The notes beneath the pieces are model-generated. The model had not been told where the DNA came from and searched no databases. It saw nothing but the letters and a program-made list of their open reading frames with translations. Below, piece by piece: positions 2,016 to 30,172 of a stretch of DNA of 36,279 bases (within the stretch, counting starts at the first letter, position 1; each line of letters starts with the position of its first letter). This DNA comes from a virus (lineage: Duplodnaviria; Heunggongvirae; Uroviricota; Caudoviricetes), in the IMG/VR virus record IMGVR_UViG_2917393062_000005, positions 1 to 36,279 of that record. One strand, 5' to 3'. The translations under genes were made by a program, and so were the position numbers.

Positions 2016-2157
2016 AACTCCTCATGTGTGTGGGGTGCTCGATGGCTCTCGTTATCTGGTTAAGTGTTTTGCAGCGCGGACATTTTATTTCAATGTAGTG
2101 AAATGAGGCGCGGGCAAGTAGTTTGTTGCAATTTTTGCATCGTACATTTTGCGTCAT
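1960..2157 (-). CDS. com: Mu Com-like zinc-finger protein, putative translational activator of the downstream methyltransferase
   Basis: MTQNVRCKNCNKLLARASFHYIEIKCPRCKTL closely resembles the Mu Com C-x2-C...C-x2-C finger as recalled. ATG at 2157 follows an AGAGG RBS; the ORF track extends to a GTG at 2166. The 3' end overlaps the methyltransferase start as com overlaps mom in Mu. Confidence 0.8.
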   Translation of the reverse strand: MTQNVRCKNCNKLLARASFHYIEIKCPRCKTLNQITRAIEHPTHMRSYDRGDRNPAPTSTYTGTH

Positions 2158-2166
2158 TTGCGGCAC

Positions 2167-2295
2167 CTCTTGTGTGGTTACTGCTGTCGATATGATAACA
2201 AATCGATCGTTTTTATCGATCGGATTTATTGCATCGATCTGTTATGCCTATTGCTTATGTATGGTGCCCTCATTTGTGAGGGTAGCAAAAAGAAA
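2167..2295 (-). promoter_or_regulatory. Putative com-methyltransferase promoter region with three clustered GATC sites
   Basis: GATC at about 2205, 2218 and 2236 within AT-rich sequence just upstream of com; resembles the Dam-sensitive regulatory region of the Mu mom operon. Promoter hexamers not confidently placed. Confidence 0.4.
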
Positions 2296-2327
2296 ACCCG
2301 CAGTTTTTACGCTGCGGGTTTGTTGTT
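2296..2327. terminator. Bidirectional rho-independent terminator between ogr and com
   Basis: CCCGCAG-TTTTTACG-CTGCGGG hairpin flanked by an A-run upstream and a T-rich run downstream, so it can terminate on either strand. Confidence 0.5.
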
Positions 2328-2738
2328 CATGTCTGTGAGATAGGGTGCCGTTTCGACCAACCTTAGCAACCGATTGACGGGGGATTACTCCCCCGTCGCG
2401 GTTATCTTACTTATTACATAGTAAGAATGCCGCAATTTCCGTGCCAGCAAACCTGAATCGTAACTCGCACGGTGATGTGTGGAGGATCCAGATTATCGCT
2501 ACCGCAGTTATGCAAAGTAACAGGGTTTTTAACGGAATTTGCGTCATAACGCTTGTCTCCTGAGAGGAGAGGCGCTAACCTTCTACTTGCGAAGGTAAGA
2601 AGTGTTAGGGCCTCGGTTAAACAAAAATGTTTTCCGGGGCCTTTCCACATCTGGCCTTCGGGTATTCCCTCCGACCATCAGCCGAAAGGCACCCGCGCGT
2701 AATCTATCGCTTTTTTGTTACTCCGGCAATTCTGCCTG

Positions 2739-2999
2739 TTAATTCTGAGATAAAGGCAAACTCATCTGATTGTTTCCCCTGTGTGAGGCTGGCAGCTCAT
2801 GCCACGGGATACCTTCTGATGAGTGAACGCCGGAGGCGTGTTTCGATGTGAATTTATGGAAAGCTTCCAGTGTTGAGAAGCATACGCCGCATTCCAGGTT
2901 GTTACACTGGTAATACTTTTGCCGCACGGTGTTTGAATCATTTTCCGGACGACTGGTGCGGATACGGGCAGATGCGCCACAAAGCGGACAACGGAACAT
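2739..2999 (-). CDS. ogr: Late-gene transcriptional activator, zinc finger (P2 Ogr / 186 B family)
   Basis: MFRCPLCGASARIRTSR...YYQCNNLECGVCF matches the Ogr pattern MFHCPLC...HQCQNVNC recalled from P2. Confidence 0.85.
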   Translation of the reverse strand: MFRCPLCGASARIRTSRPENDSNTVRQKYYQCNNLECGVCFSTLEAFHKFTSKHASGVHSSEGIPWHELPASHRGNNQMSLPLSQN

Positions 3000-3041
3000 A
3001 GCGACCTCCCTTAACGTGGTGCTGTCGCTATTCTAAGTTCC

Positions 3042-10064: not shown

Positions 10065-10607
10065 ATGGATATAAAAACATTAAAGGAGTGTATAAAAATA
10101 GAAGTTATAGGCGGAAACCATGAGTTTTCATGGAGAAAAGCTTTAACTCGCACCAGACGCAATAGGCGAAAACACTTTATGTTTTGGTGGCGAGTGGCCA
10201 GCTATCTATACAGCAGAGGAGGGTTCATGCGCTGGGTGGGCAAACGCATCGGAGCAAACCTTCATCGCGATTATAATGTTGAGATTCCTTTAACAGTGAG
10301 TATAGGGCCAGGCTTAGATATTGCTCACTTATCAGGTATTGTTATTACAGAAAACTGTGTGATAGGGAGAAATCTACATATAAAGCAAGGTGTTACTATT
10401 GGTCTAAGAACCCCTTCCAATGAGGCAATGATTACTATTGGAGATAATGTTGATATAGGTTGCAATTCATCTATCCTTGGTGGGCAAGTTAATATCGGTG
10501 ATAACGTTACGATAGGTGCTCATGCTCTGGTAACAAAATCTATTCCTTCCAACTCAATATATATAAACGAAATAACTCCTGTTATAAGACAAAAAAAGGC
10601 GCAGTAA
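10065..10607 (+). CDS. Hexapeptide-repeat (left-handed beta-helix) acyl/acetyltransferase, moron gene
   Basis: Repeated [LIV]-G-x-x-x-x hexapeptides (IGRNLHI, VTIGL, ITIGDNVDIG, VNIGDNVTIG), WcaF/CysE-like. Markedly AT-rich compared with flanking tail genes. True start may be internal. Confidence 0.75.
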   Translation: MDIKTLKECIKIEVIGGNHEFSWRKALTRTRRNRRKHFMFWWRVASYLYSRGGFMRWVGKRIGANLHRDYNVEIPLTVSIGPGLDIAHLSGIVITENCVIGRNLHIKQGVTIGLRTPSNEAMITIGDNVDIGCNSSILGGQVNIGDNVTIGAHALVTKSIPSNSIYINEITPVIRQKKAQ

Positions 10608-22226: not shown

Positions 22227-23978
22227 ATGATTCAGGACGCTTTTGTGCGCCAGCGTGCGCGGCAACTTTACTGGCAGGGTTATCCGCCCGCAGAAATATC
22301 ACGTCTGATGGGAATAAACCCGAACACGATTTATGCGTGGAAAAAACGCGACCAGTGGGATGAAACGCCACCTGTGCAGCGTGTCACGCAGTCCATCGAT
22401 GCGCGCCTCATCCAGCTTACTGAAAAACAGAATAAAACAGGCGGTGACTTCAAGGAAATAGACCTGCTGACCCGGCAGCTTAAAAAGCTGCATGATGGCC
22501 AGCCGGATGTGATGACCGCAGGAAAGAAAGGCCGGGCGAAAAAACTCAAAAATCATTTCACGCCGGAACAGATTGCCGCACTGCGGGAAAAAATCATCAG
22601 CAGGCTGGAGTGGCATCAGCGGGGCTGGTTTGACTCCCTGACCCTTTGCAGGGAAGCCGGGATACGTAACAGGATGATCCTGAAATCCCGACAGATTGGG
22701 GCGACTTGGTATTTTGCACAGGAAGCACTGCTGATGGCGCTGCGTGACGATGTGGCGCAACCTTACCAGCGTAACCAGATTTTTTTGTCTGCGTCGCGTC
22801 GTCAGGCGTTCCAGTTTAAAAGCATTATTCAGAAGGCCGCGGCTGAAGTTGATGTGGAGCTGAAGGGGGGCGATAAAATCATCCTCTCCAACGGCGCAGA
22901 GCTGCATTTTCTCGGTACTTCTGCTGCGACGGCACAGTCCTACACAGGCAATTTTTATTTTGATGAATTTTTCTGGGTCAGTCGCTTTGCTGAACTGCGC
23001 AAGGTGGCTGGCGCTATGGCAACCCTCAGCGGGCTGCGACGCACCTACTTCTCCACGCCATCAACCGAAACGCACGAGGCATACGTCTACTGGAACGGCG
23101 ACCGCTGGAACGAAAAAAAGGCCGCGCATAAACGCCAGCGTTTTTCTGTGGACTGGAAAACGCTGCATAACGGGCTTATATGCCCCGACCGGACGTGGCG
23201 GCAAATTGTCACGCTGGAAGATGTGGTTAATCACGGCTGGAAACACACCGATATTGATGAAATTCGTGATGAAAACACCGAAGACGAGTTCCGCAATCTC
23301 TATATGTGTGAGTTTGTCCGCGAAGGGGAATCGGCATTTAACCTGAATATCCTGATTGGCTGCGGCGTTGATGGATACGACGACTGGAAAGACTGGAAAC
23401 CTTTTGCTCCCCGCCCGATGGGGAATCGTCCGGTATGGATTGGGTATGACGCAAACGGCAGCAGTGGAAACGGCGACAGTGGCGCGGTGTCCGTGGTGGT
23501 TCCTCCGGCTGTTCCTGGTGGCCGTTTTCGAACGGTGGAGACGCGACGCGTTCAGGGGCTGGAGTTTGAAGAACAGGCCAGAGTCATTGAAGAGTTCACG
23601 TGTCGCTACAACGTGGAACACATCGGCATTGATGTGACGGGCGGGAACGGGGAGGCTGTTTATCAGATAGTGAAACGGTTTTTCCCTGCTGCTATTCCGT
23701 ACACCTTCACGCTGTCATCAAAACGGTCGCTGGTACTGAAAATGCTGCAAATAATGCGTGCCGGGCGGTGGGAATACGATCGCGCCGAACGCGAGCTGGT
23801 CGCGGCCTTTAACGCCGTGCGTAAGGTGAAAACACCGGGCGGCTTTATCACTTACGAAACGGACCGCGCGAGGGGGATCAGCCACGGCGACCTTGCGTGG
23901 GCAACCATGCTTGCTGTCATTAACGAACCAATTGGCGGCGAAGGAGAAAACGAGCGTTTCACGGTTATGGAGTTCTGA
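22227..23978 (+). CDS. P: Terminase ATPase (large) subunit P
   Basis: 583 aa; N-terminal HTH-like MIQDAFVRQRARQLYWQGY...IYAWKKRDQWD typical of P2 gpP; followed by the portal gene. Confidence 0.92.
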   Translation: MIQDAFVRQRARQLYWQGYPPAEISRLMGINPNTIYAWKKRDQWDETPPVQRVTQSIDARLIQLTEKQNKTGGDFKEIDLLTRQLKKLHDGQPDVMTAGKKGRAKKLKNHFTPEQIAALREKIISRLEWHQRGWFDSLTLCREAGIRNRMILKSRQIGATWYFAQEALLMALRDDVAQPYQRNQIFLSASRRQAFQFKSIIQKAAAEVDVELKGGDKIILSNGAELHFLGTSAATAQSYTGNFYFDEFFWVSRFAELRKVAGAMATLSGLRRTYFSTPSTETHEAYVYWNGDRWNEKKAAHKRQRFSVDWKTLHNGLICPDRTWRQIVTLEDVVNHGWKHTDIDEIRDENTEDEFRNLYMCEFVREGESAFNLNILIGCGVDGYDDWKDWKPFAPRPMGNRPVWIGYDANGSSGNGDSGAVSVVVPPAVPGGRFRTVETRRVQGLEFEEQARVIEEFTCRYNVEHIGIDVTGGNGEAVYQIVKRFFPAAIPYTFTLSSKRSLVLKMLQIMRAGRWEYDRAERELVAAFNAVRKVKTPGGFITYETDRARGISHGDLAWATMLAVINEPIGGEGENERFTVMEF

Positions 23979-25024
23979 TGAGCAGAAAAAATAAAAAAGT
24001 GCGCATGAGTTCACGCATTGATCTCGCTGATGCGCTCAGGAAAGAATCGTCGCTCAGTGCATTCACATTTGATGGTCCTTACCGCCTGACCGGGCATGAC
24101 CTGCTGGACAATATGTACTGTGCTGATAACGGGCGATGGTATGAAACCCCGGTGGACTGGTACGGTCTGGCAAGAGCTGCCCGGCAAACGTCCTGGCATC
24201 AGTCTGCGCTTTACTTTAAGCGCAATGTATTGCTCGGCTGCTATATTCCGCACCCGCTGCTTTCCCGGCAGGATTTCTCGGCGCTGGCGCTGGACTGGTT
24301 TGTGTTCGGTAACGCATTCCTTGAGCTTCGAAGCAATATGCTCGGCGAACCGCTTAAATTACGGCACGCCCTGGCGAAATACATGCGACGCGGAAGCGAT
24401 CTTGAATCATGGTGGTATGTGCAGGATGGCAAGGACGCGTTCCAGTTTCGCCCTGGCAAAGTGTGCCACCTGATGAATCCGGATATTAACCAGGAAATCT
24501 ACGGCATGCCGGAATATCTTGGCGCATTACTCTCGGCCAGCCTTTCTCATTCGGCGGACATGTTCAGAAAACTGTACTACGACAACGGATCCCACGCCGG
24601 GTGCATCATCTACATCGGTGCAGCGCAGGTAAACCGCGAAAGCATGGACTCCCTGAAAGAAACGCTACAGGGGGCACGTGGTGGTGGTGCGTTTAAAAAC
24701 GTGCTCATTCATGCGCCCAACGGGGGCAAAGAGGGGGTGCAAATTTTGCCGTTCCAGCAGATCACCGCAAAAGATGAGTTCATGAATGTTAAGGCGGCAT
24801 CCCGTGATGATGTGCTGGCTGCGCACCGCGTTCCGCCGCAACTGATGGGGGCGATGCCGGGTGAAAAAAGTGCGTTTGGTGATGTGGAGAAGGCCGCGCG
24901 GGTTTACGCAATTAACGAGCTGATGCCCGTCATGGAGGCCATGAAGCACATCAATGACTGGCTTGGCGAAGAGGTGATCCGCTTTAACCCTTACGCACTG
25001 TTAGACACCCAGCCCACATCCTGA
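23978..25024 (+). CDS. Q: Portal protein Q
   Basis: 348 aa, start overlapping the P stop; size and position match P2 gpQ. Confidence 0.9.
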   Translation: MSRKNKKVRMSSRIDLADALRKESSLSAFTFDGPYRLTGHDLLDNMYCADNGRWYETPVDWYGLARAARQTSWHQSALYFKRNVLLGCYIPHPLLSRQDFSALALDWFVFGNAFLELRSNMLGEPLKLRHALAKYMRRGSDLESWWYVQDGKDAFQFRPGKVCHLMNPDINQEIYGMPEYLGALLSASLSHSADMFRKLYYDNGSHAGCIIYIGAAQVNRESMDSLKETLQGARGGGAFKNVLIHAPNGGKEGVQILPFQQITAKDEFMNVKAASRDDVLAAHRVPPQLMGAMPGEKSAFGDVEKAARVYAINELMPVMEAMKHINDWLGEEVIRFNPYALLDTQPTS

Positions 25025-25051
25025 CGCGCTTCGCTTGTCTGCTGCTTCGCC

Positions 25052-25074
25052 GGGGCATAAAAAATTTATGCCCC
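25052..25074. repeat. Perfect 10-bp-stem palindrome GGGGCATAAA-AAA-TTTATGCCCC just past Q
   Basis: Seen in sequence; no U-tract, so either a terminator-like hairpin or a binding site. Confidence 0.4.
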
Positions 25075-25329
25075 GACTCTCCAGCTCCTGTATCAGTCAG
25101 ATAGTTTCACGACGCTTTCCAGTTTATCGCCACCATCGACGGTCAGACTCTTACGCAATCCCACCGCGTTGACTGCATGTTCTCGCCGTCTCAGTGCGAT
25201 TTTGACGGCCTTACCTTTCACCCCATCAAATCAAAAGCCCTCACGTCTTTTTCACGTTCAGCGTGAGAAATACAGCCATTCTGTTGTATCTCTGCGACAT
25301 CGTTCAGGGAATGCTATTTACCCCCTGAA

Positions 25330-25420: not shown

Positions 25421-25448
25421 CGGAAGGGCAAAAAGTCGTTCAAAAAAA

Positions 25449-25478
25449 TTGTGCAATTTTGTGCACTATTGTGCATTG
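25449..25478. repeat. Three tandem 10-bp iterons TTGTGCA(A/C/T)T
   Basis: ttgtgcaatt / ttgtgcacta / ttgtgcattg in exact 10-bp register, next to the hairpin that ends the hotspot gene. Confidence 0.6.
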
Positions 25479-25483
25479 AAATA

Positions 25484-25506
25484 AACGCCCTGGAGGAGGG
25501 CGTTTT
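25484..25506 (-). terminator. Hairpin terminator after the 135-aa hotspot gene
   Basis: AACGCCC-TGGAGGA-GGGCGTT stem-loop immediately past the stop at 25509. Confidence 0.5.
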
Positions 25507-25508
25507 AC

Positions 25509-25916
25509 TTATCTTTTATAGCCTTGCCCCTTCCTGGCCAACGCCCTGATGGCCGGGCGTGCCAACACCATATTTTGGCAATGATGAATTGCCCGGCAAA
25601 ATTCATCTCTACCCATTGGATGCTCAACTGGCAATGTTAAATACAGGTTCCATGCGTCGCCTAAAAGTTGGGCTATCTTTTGTTCTTCAGATGTCAGCAA
25701 GCAAGCGGTATCCGTAAAATAATCATACTTTTCATGTATGTTATTTAACGGTTTTGTCTGTAGTGCAGCCTGAGCTATACGGTATGCCTGAAGCATACGG
25801 GCGTCGTTGATATCCATTCCGAACGGAATTTCTGATGATTGTGACTCTGCATCTTCAAGCCTGGCAATTTCTTTACGTAAGAAGTATTTCAACTCTTGTT
25901 TCTGTTTTCTGTTCAT
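25509..25916 (-). CDS. Hypothetical protein (about 135 aa) at the cos-proximal accessory locus
   Basis: ORF with AAGGA RBS before ATG at 25916 (MNRKQKQELKYF...); no family recognised. Occupies the tin/old-equivalent position of P2. Confidence 0.6.
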   Translation of the reverse strand: MNRKQKQELKYFLRKEIARLEDAESQSSEIPFGMDINDARMLQAYRIAQAALQTKPLNNIHEKYDYFTDTACLLTSEEQKIAQLLGDAWNLYLTLPVEHPMGRDEFCRAIHHCQNMVLARPAIRALARKGQGYKR

Positions 25917-26012
25917 GCTTTTTTCCTTTTTCTCTGTCAATGTGTTGCATTGTGTCCCCCTTGTTTATGTTCCCGGATTAAAGTCATCAGGCGGATGCGC
26001 CCTGATGTTGTG

Positions 26013-26324
26013 TTATTCGGGAAATAACGCCCGGATATTTCCGGCCATCTGACTGGTTATCTGTGCGGTTGATACTGGCTGTGACGCGGGGCATTCTGTC
26101 CTGGTTTGTGTCACTGATAACGCCTCATCGTCAGCCCATGCAGCCAGTCGGTAAGCCTCTGCCGGATTCATTTTCAGAAGAGCCAGCCCGGCCAGAAAAG
26201 CCACGCGTTGGCCGCTTTTGCGGGCTTCTGGTGTAAGGCTGTCCAGCCAGGCGCATGCTTCGCTTTCGTTCTTGACGGCCGCAGGCTTCAGATAGAAACT
26301 TATCCGTCTGGTTGGTGTCGTCAT
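26013..26324 (-). CDS. parR: ParR/StbB-like centromere-binding partition adaptor
   Basis: About 104 aa from MTTPTRRISFYLKP; AAGGAG RBS; immediately downstream of parM; resembles R1 ParR (FKLNPD..., RAALTAGLALY, ...LFP) as recalled. Confidence 0.65.
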   Translation of the reverse strand: MTTPTRRISFYLKPAAVKNESEACAWLDSLTPEARKSGQRVAFLAGLALLKMNPAEAYRLAAWADDEALSVTQTRTECPASQPVSTAQITSQMAGNIRALFPE

Positions 26325-26328
26325 TGGT

Positions 26329-27288
26329 TTACTCCTTGTCCATTGCGTACAGCCCATTAACCAGAGCAAACTGTGGCACCCCGTCCGCGATGAAAGTCGC
26401 ATTAACTCCGCAGGCTTCGCGGATAGCGGGTGCCACAATCTCCGCCCCTCCACCGACAACCATCACCCGCCCGTAACCCGAAAAACCCGCCAGCGCGCGG
26501 ATCACGCGTTGTTTCAGTGTTTCTTCCTTTTCACGAATAACCGCCATCAGGCTGGCGTAATGCGCGTCATTGTGGATGTGCTGGCGCAGCCAGGCTTCAT
26601 CATGGCGATGTTCGATAATGGTATTGGCGATGTGGTGACTGGTGCGCATACCGTTAGTGGCCATCACCGACAGTACGGCATCGGCCATCAGAGAAACGCC
26701 TACGTGTGGATCGCAAAACACCTGGCTGATACCTGCCAGTTGCCCCTGAACCTTTGCCACATCCAGCGTGGTTCCGCCCAAATCCACAATCAGCAGGGAT
26801 TCAAACGGACTCATGTCAGCCAGTGCCTTAAAGCCAGCCGGAATGGATTCAGGCATAACCCGCACGTTACGGATAGTGAATGCTTCGCCGTTCTGGTACT
26901 CCACCGGGCGCATAACGTTCGCTTTTTTGCGGTTGATGTTGGCCATGTCCGGCTGTGCGTTTGTGTCGAAATACTCGCTCAGTGGCAGGGTGACAACCAC
27001 ATCCACCTCCTGTGGCGTGATGCCTGATTTGACCAGCGCGTGATGAATGGCAATGACATTTACATCGCTGTATTGGTATTGCGTGTCGGTTGTCTGGACA
27101 AAGCGATCGCTGACCGGATCAAAACCATAGCGCACTCCATCAAGCATGTAGTTCGCGGGCTGCATGCCACCGAACGGCGCAGACCATTCCGACTTGAAGC
27201 TGTTCGGGCTGATGGCGTTGCGGCGTTCGCCGTTCTCAGTCCATGCCAGCTTGATGTTGGTGGAGCCGTCGTCGATACAAATTTTCAT
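26329..27288 (-). CDS. parM: ParM/StbA actin-like partition ATPase
   Basis: 319 aa with the ParM motif series: IDDGSTNIKL, ISPNSF, QYSDVNV, HHAL, QPDMANI.RKKAN, VMPESIPAG, DLGGTTLD, GISQ, GVSL, VGGGAE, LVNGLY. Confidence 0.85.
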   Translation of the reverse strand: MKICIDDGSTNIKLAWTENGERRNAISPNSFKSEWSAPFGGMQPANYMLDGVRYGFDPVSDRFVQTTDTQYQYSDVNVIAIHHALVKSGITPQEVDVVVTLPLSEYFDTNAQPDMANINRKKANVMRPVEYQNGEAFTIRNVRVMPESIPAGFKALADMSPFESLLIVDLGGTTLDVAKVQGQLAGISQVFCDPHVGVSLMADAVLSVMATNGMRTSHHIANTIIEHRHDEAWLRQHIHNDAHYASLMAVIREKEETLKQRVIRALAGFSGYGRVMVVGGGAEIVAPAIREACGVNATFIADGVPQFALVNGLYAMDKE

Positions 27289-27440
27289 GTCGCTTTTCCT
27301 TATGTTGATTAATTAATCGTTTACGGGATTCTGAAATCCCGTTTTTGCCTGTTTTGCGCGCACTTCATGTTTTATGGCACGTTTTTTGCTCATTTACGGG
27401 ATTTGTGAATCCCATTTCTGTCTGTTTTTTGTTTCCACTG
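27289..27440. repeat. Two about 36-bp direct repeats, each with an 8-bp palindrome, upstream of parM; candidate parC-like centromere/operator
   Basis: TTTACGGGATTCTGAAATCCCGTTTTTGCCTGTTTT (about 27320-27355) and TTTACGGGATTTGTGAATCCCATTTCTGTCTGTTTT (about 27393-27430); the second lies within the A 3' end. Also a 12-bp palindrome GATTAATTAATC at 27306-27317. Confidence 0.5.
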
Positions 27441-30172
27441 GTCAGGCCACCCCGCAGCAGGTCTGCTTTGCGGTGGGCGCGTTCAGTGGTTTCACTGATT
27501 CTCTGTGCGTGCTCTGCGTCACGGATGGCGCGCAGCATGTCAGAAAGCACGGTAACGGGGGTTTTCATGGTGTTCTGGTCCTGCTGAAGTGTGGATGCCA
27601 GACGTGCGGCGGCTTCAGGGTCTGATGCCCCCAGCTGTGCCAGATAGCTGGCGACCGGGTTATGGCGGATCTCCGTGCTGCTTACGCCGTGATTACGGCT
27701 CAGGCGCTGCCAGAGCTGCGTGATTCGGCTGTCCGGGCGGGTATCCGGTTTGCGTACAATTTCAAATCCCTGCGGTGCAATGATGCTGCCGTCAACGTAC
27801 AGACTGCCGCCCCGTAACAGGTGCTGCATCTGTTGTTCACCGATATGCAGGCCGAGAGATTCAGCAGACTCCCGCCATTCTTTAGCGAGTAATTCGTGGT
27901 TATCAGGCAAAGGCCGCTGCTGTTTGCGGCTCTGTGTCCAGCTCTGCATTTCATCACTGCTGTTTTTTGCCTGTTTGTCACGCAGCGAACGCATCAGCGC
28001 CCGGCGTTCGTGCCGTTTCAGTGAGCGCATCCATTCGTTCACTTCAACGCCGTCAGGGAGCTGCGGCCACGGTGCTGGCCGTTCTTCCGGCTGTTCTGTC
28101 CCGTTGTTGTCCGTTTCCTGTACACGGGGACAGTTATTGCCACGAGTCCAAGGGGCGGCAGGGCCGCCCTGAAGGTCAAAACCATTTTCGTGGGTGCTGT
28201 CTTCCGCTTCCGGTTTACGTCTTACCAGCTTCCAGTTATCCGGGTGCGTGCACACACGGGAGGATTCCCCGATGAGTGGCGACCAGATCCCGTAAATCTG
28301 TACACTCTGTTCGCCGTAATCGTTCAGCTCATCTGCGAGGTCGTAGGCTGTGCGAATCAGGTAGTCCTTGCGCGGAACAAGTACGCCACCCTGTTTTTCA
28401 ATGTAGGTGGCAAAACACCCGGCATCAGCGGCAGCAAGAACCGCATCCATTGCGTCATCCTTCAGCCGTTGCGGGCCTTCCGGGTTGCGTGCCATCTGGC
28501 TGGCAAGGCGGCGGAGTTCACGCCACACCTGACGGGAGGGAATGCCAAAGAACTGGAACTGGCGGACCCGGTGAAGGCGCGCCCAGCCGATGGCGCGTTC
28601 CACGCTCTCGGCCATTGATTTTCCGGTTTCGTGGTCAACGCGTGGCTTGCCCGTTTTCGGGTCGATGCCATCCACGGCGCGGCTGTCCAGGTTCTTTCCG
28701 ATGTAGGTGGCGATGTAGCTGGTTGGTGTGCCTTTTGAGCCGTCGACATACTCCACCTTAAAGCGCGGAGTAATATCATTGCCCAGCTCGTGGCGGTCTT
28801 CCTGAATGGCAATATCGCGGGTGATGGCCACGATGCTGTCGATTTCTTCCGGATGAGCAAAGACCATCATGTGCCAGTGCACGGTGCCGTCATGGTGAGG
28901 CTCCACCGTGCGGATGCCATACCAGCGCAGGCCGTCGCGGTTCAGTTTTTTGCGGACCGCCGCAAAAAACGTGTTAACCAGGTAATCGCTGGAGTCGCGC
29001 ATGGTGGCTCCGTTCCATTTGGGATTCGGATGACCGTTCTCTGTTGTGGCGTGGTATTTTGACGGGCAGGTGACAGTCAGAAACACCGCTTTGTCGCCAC
29101 GGGCTTCGGCCAGAAGTTCCAGCCCCTTCATGGTGGCCATCATTTCTGCCTTACGGTGAACTGGGTTACTTACTCCCGCGTAATACACTGTCTCGAGATC
29201 AATAGTGAACCCGTCTTCGTTTTCCAGCATGAAACTTTTCAGAAAATCGCGTGTTTTCTCGCGCTGTGCGCGAAACTCGCTTAACGCGTCCTGGCTCAGA
29301 TAGGGCGATGTTTTTCTGGAAACCAGACAGGCGGCGCGGAGTTGTTCTTCTCTCCACTCGCAACGTAACAGCCACAGTTTGCGTTTCCACCATTGCGCAC
29401 AGGTCAGGCGAAGGATTGCGCCCGGTAACAGTTCCGTATCCGGATCGCTCTTGTTCAGGGCTTCGTAATGTGGCGGCATGATGTGCAGGCATAATGCGAT
29501 ACGGGCCAGCATCCGGTAAGCCTTCAACATTACATCCATGGTCAGCTCGCCATCTCTGGCACCAAAGCCATCGCAGAGTGTTTCGAAGGTGCTGCTGAAC
29601 ATCGCCGCCGTCATGGTGGCCAGCGTCTGTATCTGGTGCTTGTTGAGCTGCGGCAGGTAAAGCAAATCGTCCAGGCGTTCACGCCCGGCAAGGGAGCGAT
29701 AACCCGGTGTCAGCCAGCGTCCGTCAGTGCGATCCAGACGTTCGAATATTTTGCGCAGGGTTCCGCGTGCATAGCGTTCAGCCTGCCAGCTCTTTTTGCC
29801 TTTCTGACGATCGGCTTCCTGTTTTTTGCGCAGGAAGGAGAGGTGGCGAATAAGCGGATCGCGCAGATAGGACGGCAGCAGGCGCAGCGAGGCCATGGCT
29901 TCATCCACCGCGCCGCGTGCCTGTTTTCTGGCGTCTCCTGCCAGTGTGATGGTTTTGTCCTGTTTTTCCTGTGCGTCCAGGCTTTTATTAATCAGGTTGC
30001 CCAGCGGCGTGGCGGAGAACGCCGCATCAGCCATTTCCTGGCAGCGCTCGTTCTCTGCCCGGTAGGCATCCAGCCAGGAGGAAAGCGCGGATTCAGGAGT
30101 GGGGATCTCCGTTCCTTCACGCCCCACTGCGTGGCGCGGTTGTTGCCAGTCCCTGATGTACTCTGCCGTCAT
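27365..30172 (-). CDS. A: Replication initiation endonuclease A (rolling-circle, GPA family)
   Basis: 935 aa; tandem-tyrosine active-site motif PTSYIATYIGKNLDS typical of P2 gpA-like proteins; located upstream of the cos-proximal locus. Confidence 0.85.
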   Translation of the reverse strand: MTAEYIRDWQQPRHAVGREGTEIPTPESALSSWLDAYRAENERCQEMADAAFSATPLGNLINKSLDAQEKQDKTITLAGDARKQARGAVDEAMASLRLLPSYLRDPLIRHLSFLRKKQEADRQKGKKSWQAERYARGTLRKIFERLDRTDGRWLTPGYRSLAGRERLDDLLYLPQLNKHQIQTLATMTAAMFSSTFETLCDGFGARDGELTMDVMLKAYRMLARIALCLHIMPPHYEALNKSDPDTELLPGAILRLTCAQWWKRKLWLLRCEWREEQLRAACLVSRKTSPYLSQDALSEFRAQREKTRDFLKSFMLENEDGFTIDLETVYYAGVSNPVHRKAEMMATMKGLELLAEARGDKAVFLTVTCPSKYHATTENGHPNPKWNGATMRDSSDYLVNTFFAAVRKKLNRDGLRWYGIRTVEPHHDGTVHWHMMVFAHPEEIDSIVAITRDIAIQEDRHELGNDITPRFKVEYVDGSKGTPTSYIATYIGKNLDSRAVDGIDPKTGKPRVDHETGKSMAESVERAIGWARLHRVRQFQFFGIPSRQVWRELRRLASQMARNPEGPQRLKDDAMDAVLAAADAGCFATYIEKQGGVLVPRKDYLIRTAYDLADELNDYGEQSVQIYGIWSPLIGESSRVCTHPDNWKLVRRKPEAEDSTHENGFDLQGGPAAPWTRGNNCPRVQETDNNGTEQPEERPAPWPQLPDGVEVNEWMRSLKRHERRALMRSLRDKQAKNSSDEMQSWTQSRKQQRPLPDNHELLAKEWRESAESLGLHIGEQQMQHLLRGGSLYVDGSIIAPQGFEIVRKPDTRPDSRITQLWQRLSRNHGVSSTEIRHNPVASYLAQLGASDPEAAARLASTLQQDQNTMKTPVTVLSDMLRAIRDAEHAQRISETTERAHRKADLLRGGLTSGNKKQTEMGFTNPVNEQKTCHKT

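Follow-up and report, generated by a model that had tools for sequence, protein, structure and literature searches.

A conserved ParM/ParR module of P88-like prophages that may position the phage genome during its extrachromosomal phase

The 36,279-nt stretch of viral DNA IMGVR_UViG_2917393062_000005 (here called the window, meaning this stretch at its whole length) contains a P88-like prophage (Xuanwuvirus, Peduoviridae; a placement based on gene content and order in comparison with P88) integrated beside the host gene flk. Next to its replication gene A, this prophage codes for an actin-like ParM and a ParR adaptor, preceded by two palindromic repeats. In the reading that we favor, with moderate confidence, these elements make up a functional type II ParMRC-type module that serves to position or segregate the circular phage genome during a transient extrachromosomal phase. 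A partition system in an integrating phage had been considered unexpected in the initial annotation of this DNA, but neither the genes nor the idea of a plasmid role is new. RefSeq (P88 and other Xuanwuvirus) labels the genes ParM and partition protein, PHROGs lists both as "partition protein" families, and a study of the gpA-gpQ interval of 18,150 Escherichia coli P2-like loci reported a ParM/ParR system, suggested plasmid maintenance, and lists StbA plus Plasmid_stab_B arrangements in its supplementary tables (Rousset et al. 2022; PMC9122126). Presence and plasmid hypothesis are therefore both known.

The module consists of the following parts:

26329-27288, minus strand: parM, an actin-fold segregation ATPase of 319 amino acids (aa), recognized by Pfam, by its match to R1 ParM and by its ratio of nonsynonymous to synonymous substitutions (dN/dS)
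26013-26324, minus strand: parR, an adaptor protein of 103 aa (PF10784, Plasmid_stab_B, at 1.7e-24)
27317-27355, minus strand: proximal 39-nt repeat, candidate ParR-binding site, with the palindrome CGGGATTCTGAAATCCCG at 27324-27341
27390-27428, minus strand: distal 39-nt repeat, candidate ParR-binding site, with a palindrome at 27397-27414 that reads CGGGATTTGTGAATCCCA on the plus strand

Two Pfam domains match ParM end to end, StbA_N (2.7e-82) and the ParM C-terminal domain (1.3e-68), and residues 2-316 align with the ParM of plasmid R1 (PDB 1mwk) at an E value of 8.5e-93. The segments DDGSTNIK, MPESIPAG, DLGGTTLD and GGGAE, the functional (nucleotide-binding and catalytic) motifs of ParM, align identically or conservatively with those of R1 ParM. 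Judged by its sequence, the 319-aa protein is thus a true R1-type ParM with intact ATPase motifs. The initial annotation had called it a clear ParM/StbA homolog, and the profile search bore this out, placing it in no other actin-fold family such as would have spoken against ParM. The gene is under purifying selection. Pairwise dN/dS among prophage copies is 0.02-0.15, the open reading frame (ORF) is intact in every copy fetched, and ParM identity across P88-like copies is 97.8-99.7%, versus 83-96% for gene A and 85-100% for ParR. ParM is one of the best-conserved phage proteins.

The start of parR lies 4 nt past the parM stop codon, and the final codons of parM contain a GGAG, in agreement with the ParR-like adaptor with a coupled start that had been proposed. 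A ParR-family profile that included the window protein matched the ParR (StbB) of pB171 (PDB 2jd3) at 4.8e-15 over the whole chain, and on this evidence we assign the 103-aa protein to the ribbon-helix-helix ParR family. The family profile was needed, as a PDB search with the single ParR sequence found nothing, and the AlphaFold2 (AF2) model of the monomer, with a predicted local distance difference test score (pLDDT) of 54, is too poor to confirm the fold. The protein is made up of a conserved N-terminal domain (residues 1-65), a hypervariable linker (66-95) and a conserved C-terminal NIxxLFPE, which is invariant or nearly so in 20 phage ParR alleles; alignments show that a C-terminal N-I/A-x-x-L/M-F motif is common to phage and plasmid ParRs. 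Pairwise dN/dS of parR is 0.2-0.5. Many ParR alleles, from 97% down to 52% identity, occur beside a nearly invariant ParM and shared upstream sites, and the breakpoint of the 52% allele is found about 54 nt into parR. Outside P88-like elements, a tblastn search with ParR retrieved no plasmid ParR at E<=1e-3, and a contig scan found it only in Salmonella and in two contigs from assemblies labeled as Gram-positive. These are a contig of Vagococcus sp. WN89Y and a 229-bp contig of Fredinandcohnia humi, both with a P88-like ParR 91-94% identical, most likely the result of contamination or mislabeling.

Upstream of parM, the initial annotation had described tandem 36-bp repeats as a possible parC-like centromere. 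We found instead two imperfect 39-nt copies, 79% identical and 73 bp apart from start to start, and Tandem Repeats Finder detected no array at this region; what holds of that proposal is a centromere-like pair of sites whose layout is conserved in three lineages, and what does not is the tandem array. The distal repeat is located inside the last codons of gene A, a stretch that would be under dual constraint from the coding sequence and the candidate ParR-type site, and 34 nt separate the end of the proximal one from the parM ATG. Each repeat holds an 18-20-bp palindrome of the form YGGGA-N8-TCCCR, found at only these two places in the 36-kb window, with 0.12 occurrences expected by chance. 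The phages of Hafnia (L013) and Plesiomonas (L015) also carry two sites, YGGGA-N8-(T/A)CCCR, 73 and 72 bp apart and with 38-41 nt between the proximal one and the parM ATG, so the two-site layout is kept despite a ParM identity of only 62-63%. In the Hafnia phage, the gene upstream of parM is not even A but an unrelated 167-aa ORF. The Serratia/Enterobacter clade shows a different layout, with a GGGAAC core. Regular A-tract phasing of the site region was also considered, but judged by eye it was not regular and the idea was dropped.

The surroundings of the module are defined by these features:

27365-30172, minus strand: replication gene A, a rolling-circle initiator of 935 aa (PF05840 at 3.6e-129), directly upstream of parM and on the same strand
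25509-25916, minus strand: orfX, a 135-aa helical protein (143 aa if read from a TTG at 25940)
25483-25505, strand not assigned (found by the scan on the plus strand): G+C-rich hairpin AAACGCCCTGGAGGAGGGCGTTT, probable terminator of the leftward operon, just past the orfX stop codon
23978-25024, plus strand: portal gene (Q homolog), the other boundary of the A-Q interval, as annotated in P88 and in the E275a prophage

On the minus strand, gene A is followed by the 319-aa, 103-aa and 135-aa ORFs and then by the hairpin, which, given its symmetry, would also act on this strand. The parM, parR and orfX genes thus all lie between gene A and the portal gene, and the portal and large-terminase genes, on the plus strand at 22227-25024, converge on this block. 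Since parM comes after A on the same strand, and our scan detected neither a minus-strand terminator nor a consensus sigma-70 promoter between them, we infer that the module is cotranscribed with the early replication operon.

The initial annotation had treated the cassette as cargo of the hotspot where P2 carries tin/old. However, A, ParM and ParR are kept in 14/14 related phage records, in which the matches end variably downstream of or within parR. Considering that the interval from the end of parR to the portal gene varies among relatives from 995 to 2741 bp and differs in content, the variable hotspot begins downstream of parR, with orfX as the sole variable cargo gene of this copy. The nearest ParMs outside the P88 group come from Hafnia (62%), Plesiomonas (63%), Serratia (58%) and Enterobacter (54%), and all four are found between a gpA homolog and the portal gene of a P2-like prophage, in the order ParM, PF10784 ParR and then varied cargo (HicAB, KAP NTPase). 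Gene A itself is 785 to 907 aa long in these relatives, versus 935 aa here. By its sequence distribution, then, ParM/ParR behaves as a fixed module of the P88-like lineage and related P2-like prophages and not as interchangeable hotspot cargo. ParM relatives at <=52% identity, where checked, were in plasmid contexts or in integrative and conjugative elements. A neighbor-joining tree gave two phage-borne ParM clades, but because their joint node has a support of only 34%, we do not claim a single phage-specific clade. Of 5426 complete E. coli genomes, 1348 carry the module, roughly one in four, including O157, O145 and ST131 backgrounds.

The window copy is integrated, as first proposed for a P2-like prophage. 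Positions 1-993 correspond to the host gene flk, found in 5425/5426 E. coli genomes, and phage DNA starts at about position 1096, from which we conclude that the prophage is inserted there; the window ends at the stop codon of the integrase, which is intact. The pdxB/flk site is where relatives with the same integrase integrate, while another relative is inserted between ihfA and btuC. Identity to phage P88 (NC_026014) is 96.9% over 89% of the query region, and both share a nearly identical gene content and the order int-C-cox...A-parM-parR...Q-P. The flk gene of the window is only 80-90% identical to E. coli flk in 5290 of 5437 matching records; hence, the host may be an atypical Escherichia or a member of a neighboring genus and not a typical E. 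coli.

Our proposal for how the module would work is as follows. The two YGGGA-N8-TCCCR palindromes, on either side of the stretch with the stop codon of A and the start of parM, would be bound by ParR dimers, and the C-terminal NIxxLFPE tail of ParR would capture ParM, whose ATP-driven filaments would push apart or position the copies of the circular phage genome. Transcribed together with the early replication operon, parMR would be active in the extrachromosomal phase, be it between infection and integration or, once the prophage has been excised, during replication driven by gene A. The benefit might lie in phage replication, in the distribution of the copies or in the odds of a daughter cell becoming lysogenic. 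Among the options listed in the initial annotation, genome positioning after induction appears to be the one that the evidence leaves standing.

The clearest rival is a facultative phage-plasmid, in which ParMRC would, in certain hosts or under certain conditions, keep the phage as a plasmid prophage of low copy number (Rousset et al. 2022). The suggestion is already in print (PMC9122126), the module is complete and under purifying selection, and the P1-like phage-plasmid D6 has a related StbA/StbB, with a ParM 47.8% identical. There is also one circular record, NZ_CP148288.1 (E. coli Z1323PEC0009, from PLSDB), with a whole P88-like genome in 34,461 bp joined int-to-methylase, which is the excised attP (phage attachment site) form. 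However, its assembly is noisy (25 gap openings in 18 kb, including a portal-gene frameshift), and it could be either a maintained episome or assembled DNA of an excised or induced phage. An attP junction query built from this same record found the junction intact in 0/432 genomes with this integrase type, all of them breaking at the core, pdxB|flk. Of the module copies in complete E. coli genomes, 1544/1546 are chromosomal, the copy studied here sits beside flk with an intact integrase, and the rolling-circle initiator A is the only replication function seen among those window ORFs that were screened. A 26.7-kb Shigella "plasmid" was rejected as an episome, being a linear, decayed fragment riddled with the insertion sequence (IS) IS1. 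The search for an extrachromosomal form thus gave this one 34.5-kb circle and no intact junction in the genomes, the episomal option of the initial annotation fits poorly, and we regard a plasmid lifestyle as unlikely. A role in defence or exclusion is considerably less probable still, whether by partition incompatibility toward incoming plasmids, phage-plasmids or related phages or by a repurposed anti-phage effector. The A-Q interval is a documented anti-phage hotspot (PMC9122126), and the many ParR alleles with their hypervariable linker beside an almost invariant ParM could reflect a diversifying specificity. Yet what is conserved in ParR is the DNA-reading N-terminal part, together with the candidate sites, and what varies is the linker; the module is constant between close relatives, unlike genuine hotspot cargo; and every feature expected of a working cis-acting partition system is kept, including candidate sites on the phage's own DNA. 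PADLOC had no match for ParM or ParR, and the repurposed defence function put forward initially finds no support.

The repeats could also be RNA or transcription elements, for example intrinsic terminators of antisense late-operon read-through into A on the plus strand, with ParM and ParR acting elsewhere or not at all. On that strand, both units are a G+C hairpin followed by a T-rich tail and are listed as terminator-like by the scan, and the folding energy of the proximal hairpin is -10.4 kcal/mol (z = -2.6). These properties are not conserved in Hafnia and Plesiomonas, where pairing at three of the four homologous sites is limited to the outer half-sites of 4 bp around a loop of 10 nt. The folding energies of the distal sites are just -4.5 and -4.6 kcal/mol (z between -0.5 and -0.7), and a 3' U-run is found in none of the four. 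Among P88-like copies, the inner stem positions vary without compensation (in an alignment of site variants from which four rows were used, without those of P88 and pZ1323), and the location directly upstream of parM matches the ParMRC rule. Since the outer half-sites and the fixed spacing are conserved regardless of the coding context, the repeats would suit a protein that binds DNA as a dimer better than they would an RNA element, a reading to which we give very little credence. If the module were a relic that no longer functions, left by an insertion of plasmid origin and now decaying, this would account for the truncated ParM clusters (188-261 aa, hundreds of members, some on complete chromosomes), which do indicate that some copies have decayed. 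Nevertheless, the low dN/dS and the intact ORFs of the fetched copies, the synteny across five genera at 54-63% ParM identity and the distance to the nearest plasmid ParMs (only ~52% identical, so no recent capture) speak against it, and selection and synteny effectively refute this explanation.

Several points weigh against a ParMRC-type module that acts on the extrachromosomal circle. The parC of R1 is an array of about ten 11-bp direct iterons, versus only two palindromic sites here, and it is questionable whether so small a two-site complex would cap a ParM filament. The decayed copies just mentioned count here as well. Many P2-like phages, including P2 and 186, do not have the module, and it is therefore not essential for the P2 lifestyle. 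The promoter scan was crude, and a ParR-regulated promoter could be active in the lysogen. Finally, the literature searched holds no functional study on P88 ParM, Xuanwuvirus or the CP-933T partition genes.

Among known systems, the closest in organization is ParMRC of R1/NR1, which shares with the phage module the order of sites (candidates in the phage), parM and parR, a full-length ParM match, a ParR in PF10784 and a similar ParR C-terminal motif. The phage module differs in being part of an integrating P2-like phage, right after the rolling-circle initiator A, in its shorter ParR (103 aa) and in a candidate centromere of two palindromes 73 bp apart, inside which the scan detected no consensus promoter; the number and type of its repeats set it apart from plasmid parC regions in general. 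The plasmid ParMs found by tblastn are only ~48-52% identical to the phage protein. The ParR of pB171 par2, in spite of the whole-chain profile match, differs in the layout of its binding sites and is not reached by a single-sequence search. The StbA/StbB of D6 are likewise a phage-borne ParM/ParR pair, and the GenBank annotation of D6 itself notes the similarity of its StbA to that of P88, but D6 is a plasmid prophage, whereas P88-like phages have an integrase and are essentially always chromosomal in complete genomes. P2 tin/old and the other A-Q cargo occupy the same gpA-gpQ interval (PMC9122126), although ParM/ParR does not vary within the lineage and has no match among defence families.

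As a functional model for the P88-like module, the best is AlpC/AlpA/alpS of the CGP3 prophage of Corynebacterium glutamicum. There, the adaptor AlpA is cotranscribed with the actin-like AlpC and binds the upstream region of the operon, AlpAC is induced early, and the excised circle depends on both proteins to replicate efficiently (Donovan et al. 2015; PMC4446434). As in P88-like phages, an integrated prophage encodes an actin-like protein and its adaptor; the host phylum and the type of phage are unrelated, however, and the order of adaptor and filament genes is another, and the likeness meant here is one of function. Stronger versions of our proposal, namely an actively segregated transient plasmid (carrier) state, prior to integration or following excision, or an actin-driven positioning required for efficient rolling-circle replication and packaging of monomeric circles, would give these phages a second mode of persistence or spread but seem to us doubtful. 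If either were true, P88-like phages would be the first integrating phages of Gram-negative bacteria for which a cytomotive filament had been shown to be necessary. Whether the module serves replication, positioning, lysogenization or an occasional plasmid state bears on how P2-like phages manage their circular genomes, and an established functional role would extend the single precedent of AlpAC.

The third gene of the block, orfX, belongs to no Pfam, NCBIfam, PDB or PADLOC family (its best PADLOC match is at chance level, E 0.02), as anticipated for a 135-aa protein of unknown family. Two modules make up this mosaic protein, one spanning residues ~1-60 and the other ~68-135, and each is also found on its own in other proteins; the N-terminal half is matched by PHROG 660 and the C-terminal half by PHROG 13916. 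AF2 predicts a helical structure, though with low confidence (pLDDT 53.5). Between orfX and the portal gene, ahead of the orfX terminator, there is a 2.8-copy repeat of ATTGTGCAAT at 25448-25475, in what is presumably a cos-proximal noncoding stretch, and a perfect 11-nt inverted repeat (CGGGGCATAAA/TTTATGCCCCG) is found at 25051-25075, just past the portal stop codon. A cos sequence of P2 was absent from the window as searched, and we claim no position for cos.

Other accessory genes are located away from the A-Q interval. The flk-side end of the prophage (positions 1224-2015 and ~2016-3040) codes for an N6/N4 DNA methyltransferase (PF01555, 3.4e-33), and relatives also carry a Com-family regulator, a Hok/Gef toxin and ogr in this stretch, which forms a second cluster of accessory genes at the ogr/att end. 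A hexapeptide-repeat transferase (PF00132) is encoded at 10065-10607, between the homolog of tail gene U and the tail-fibre assembly gene. Its counterpart in the related circular record NZ_CP148288.1 is labeled "transferase," P88 has a DNA invertase at this place, and the product may be an acetyltransferase involved in lysogenic conversion.

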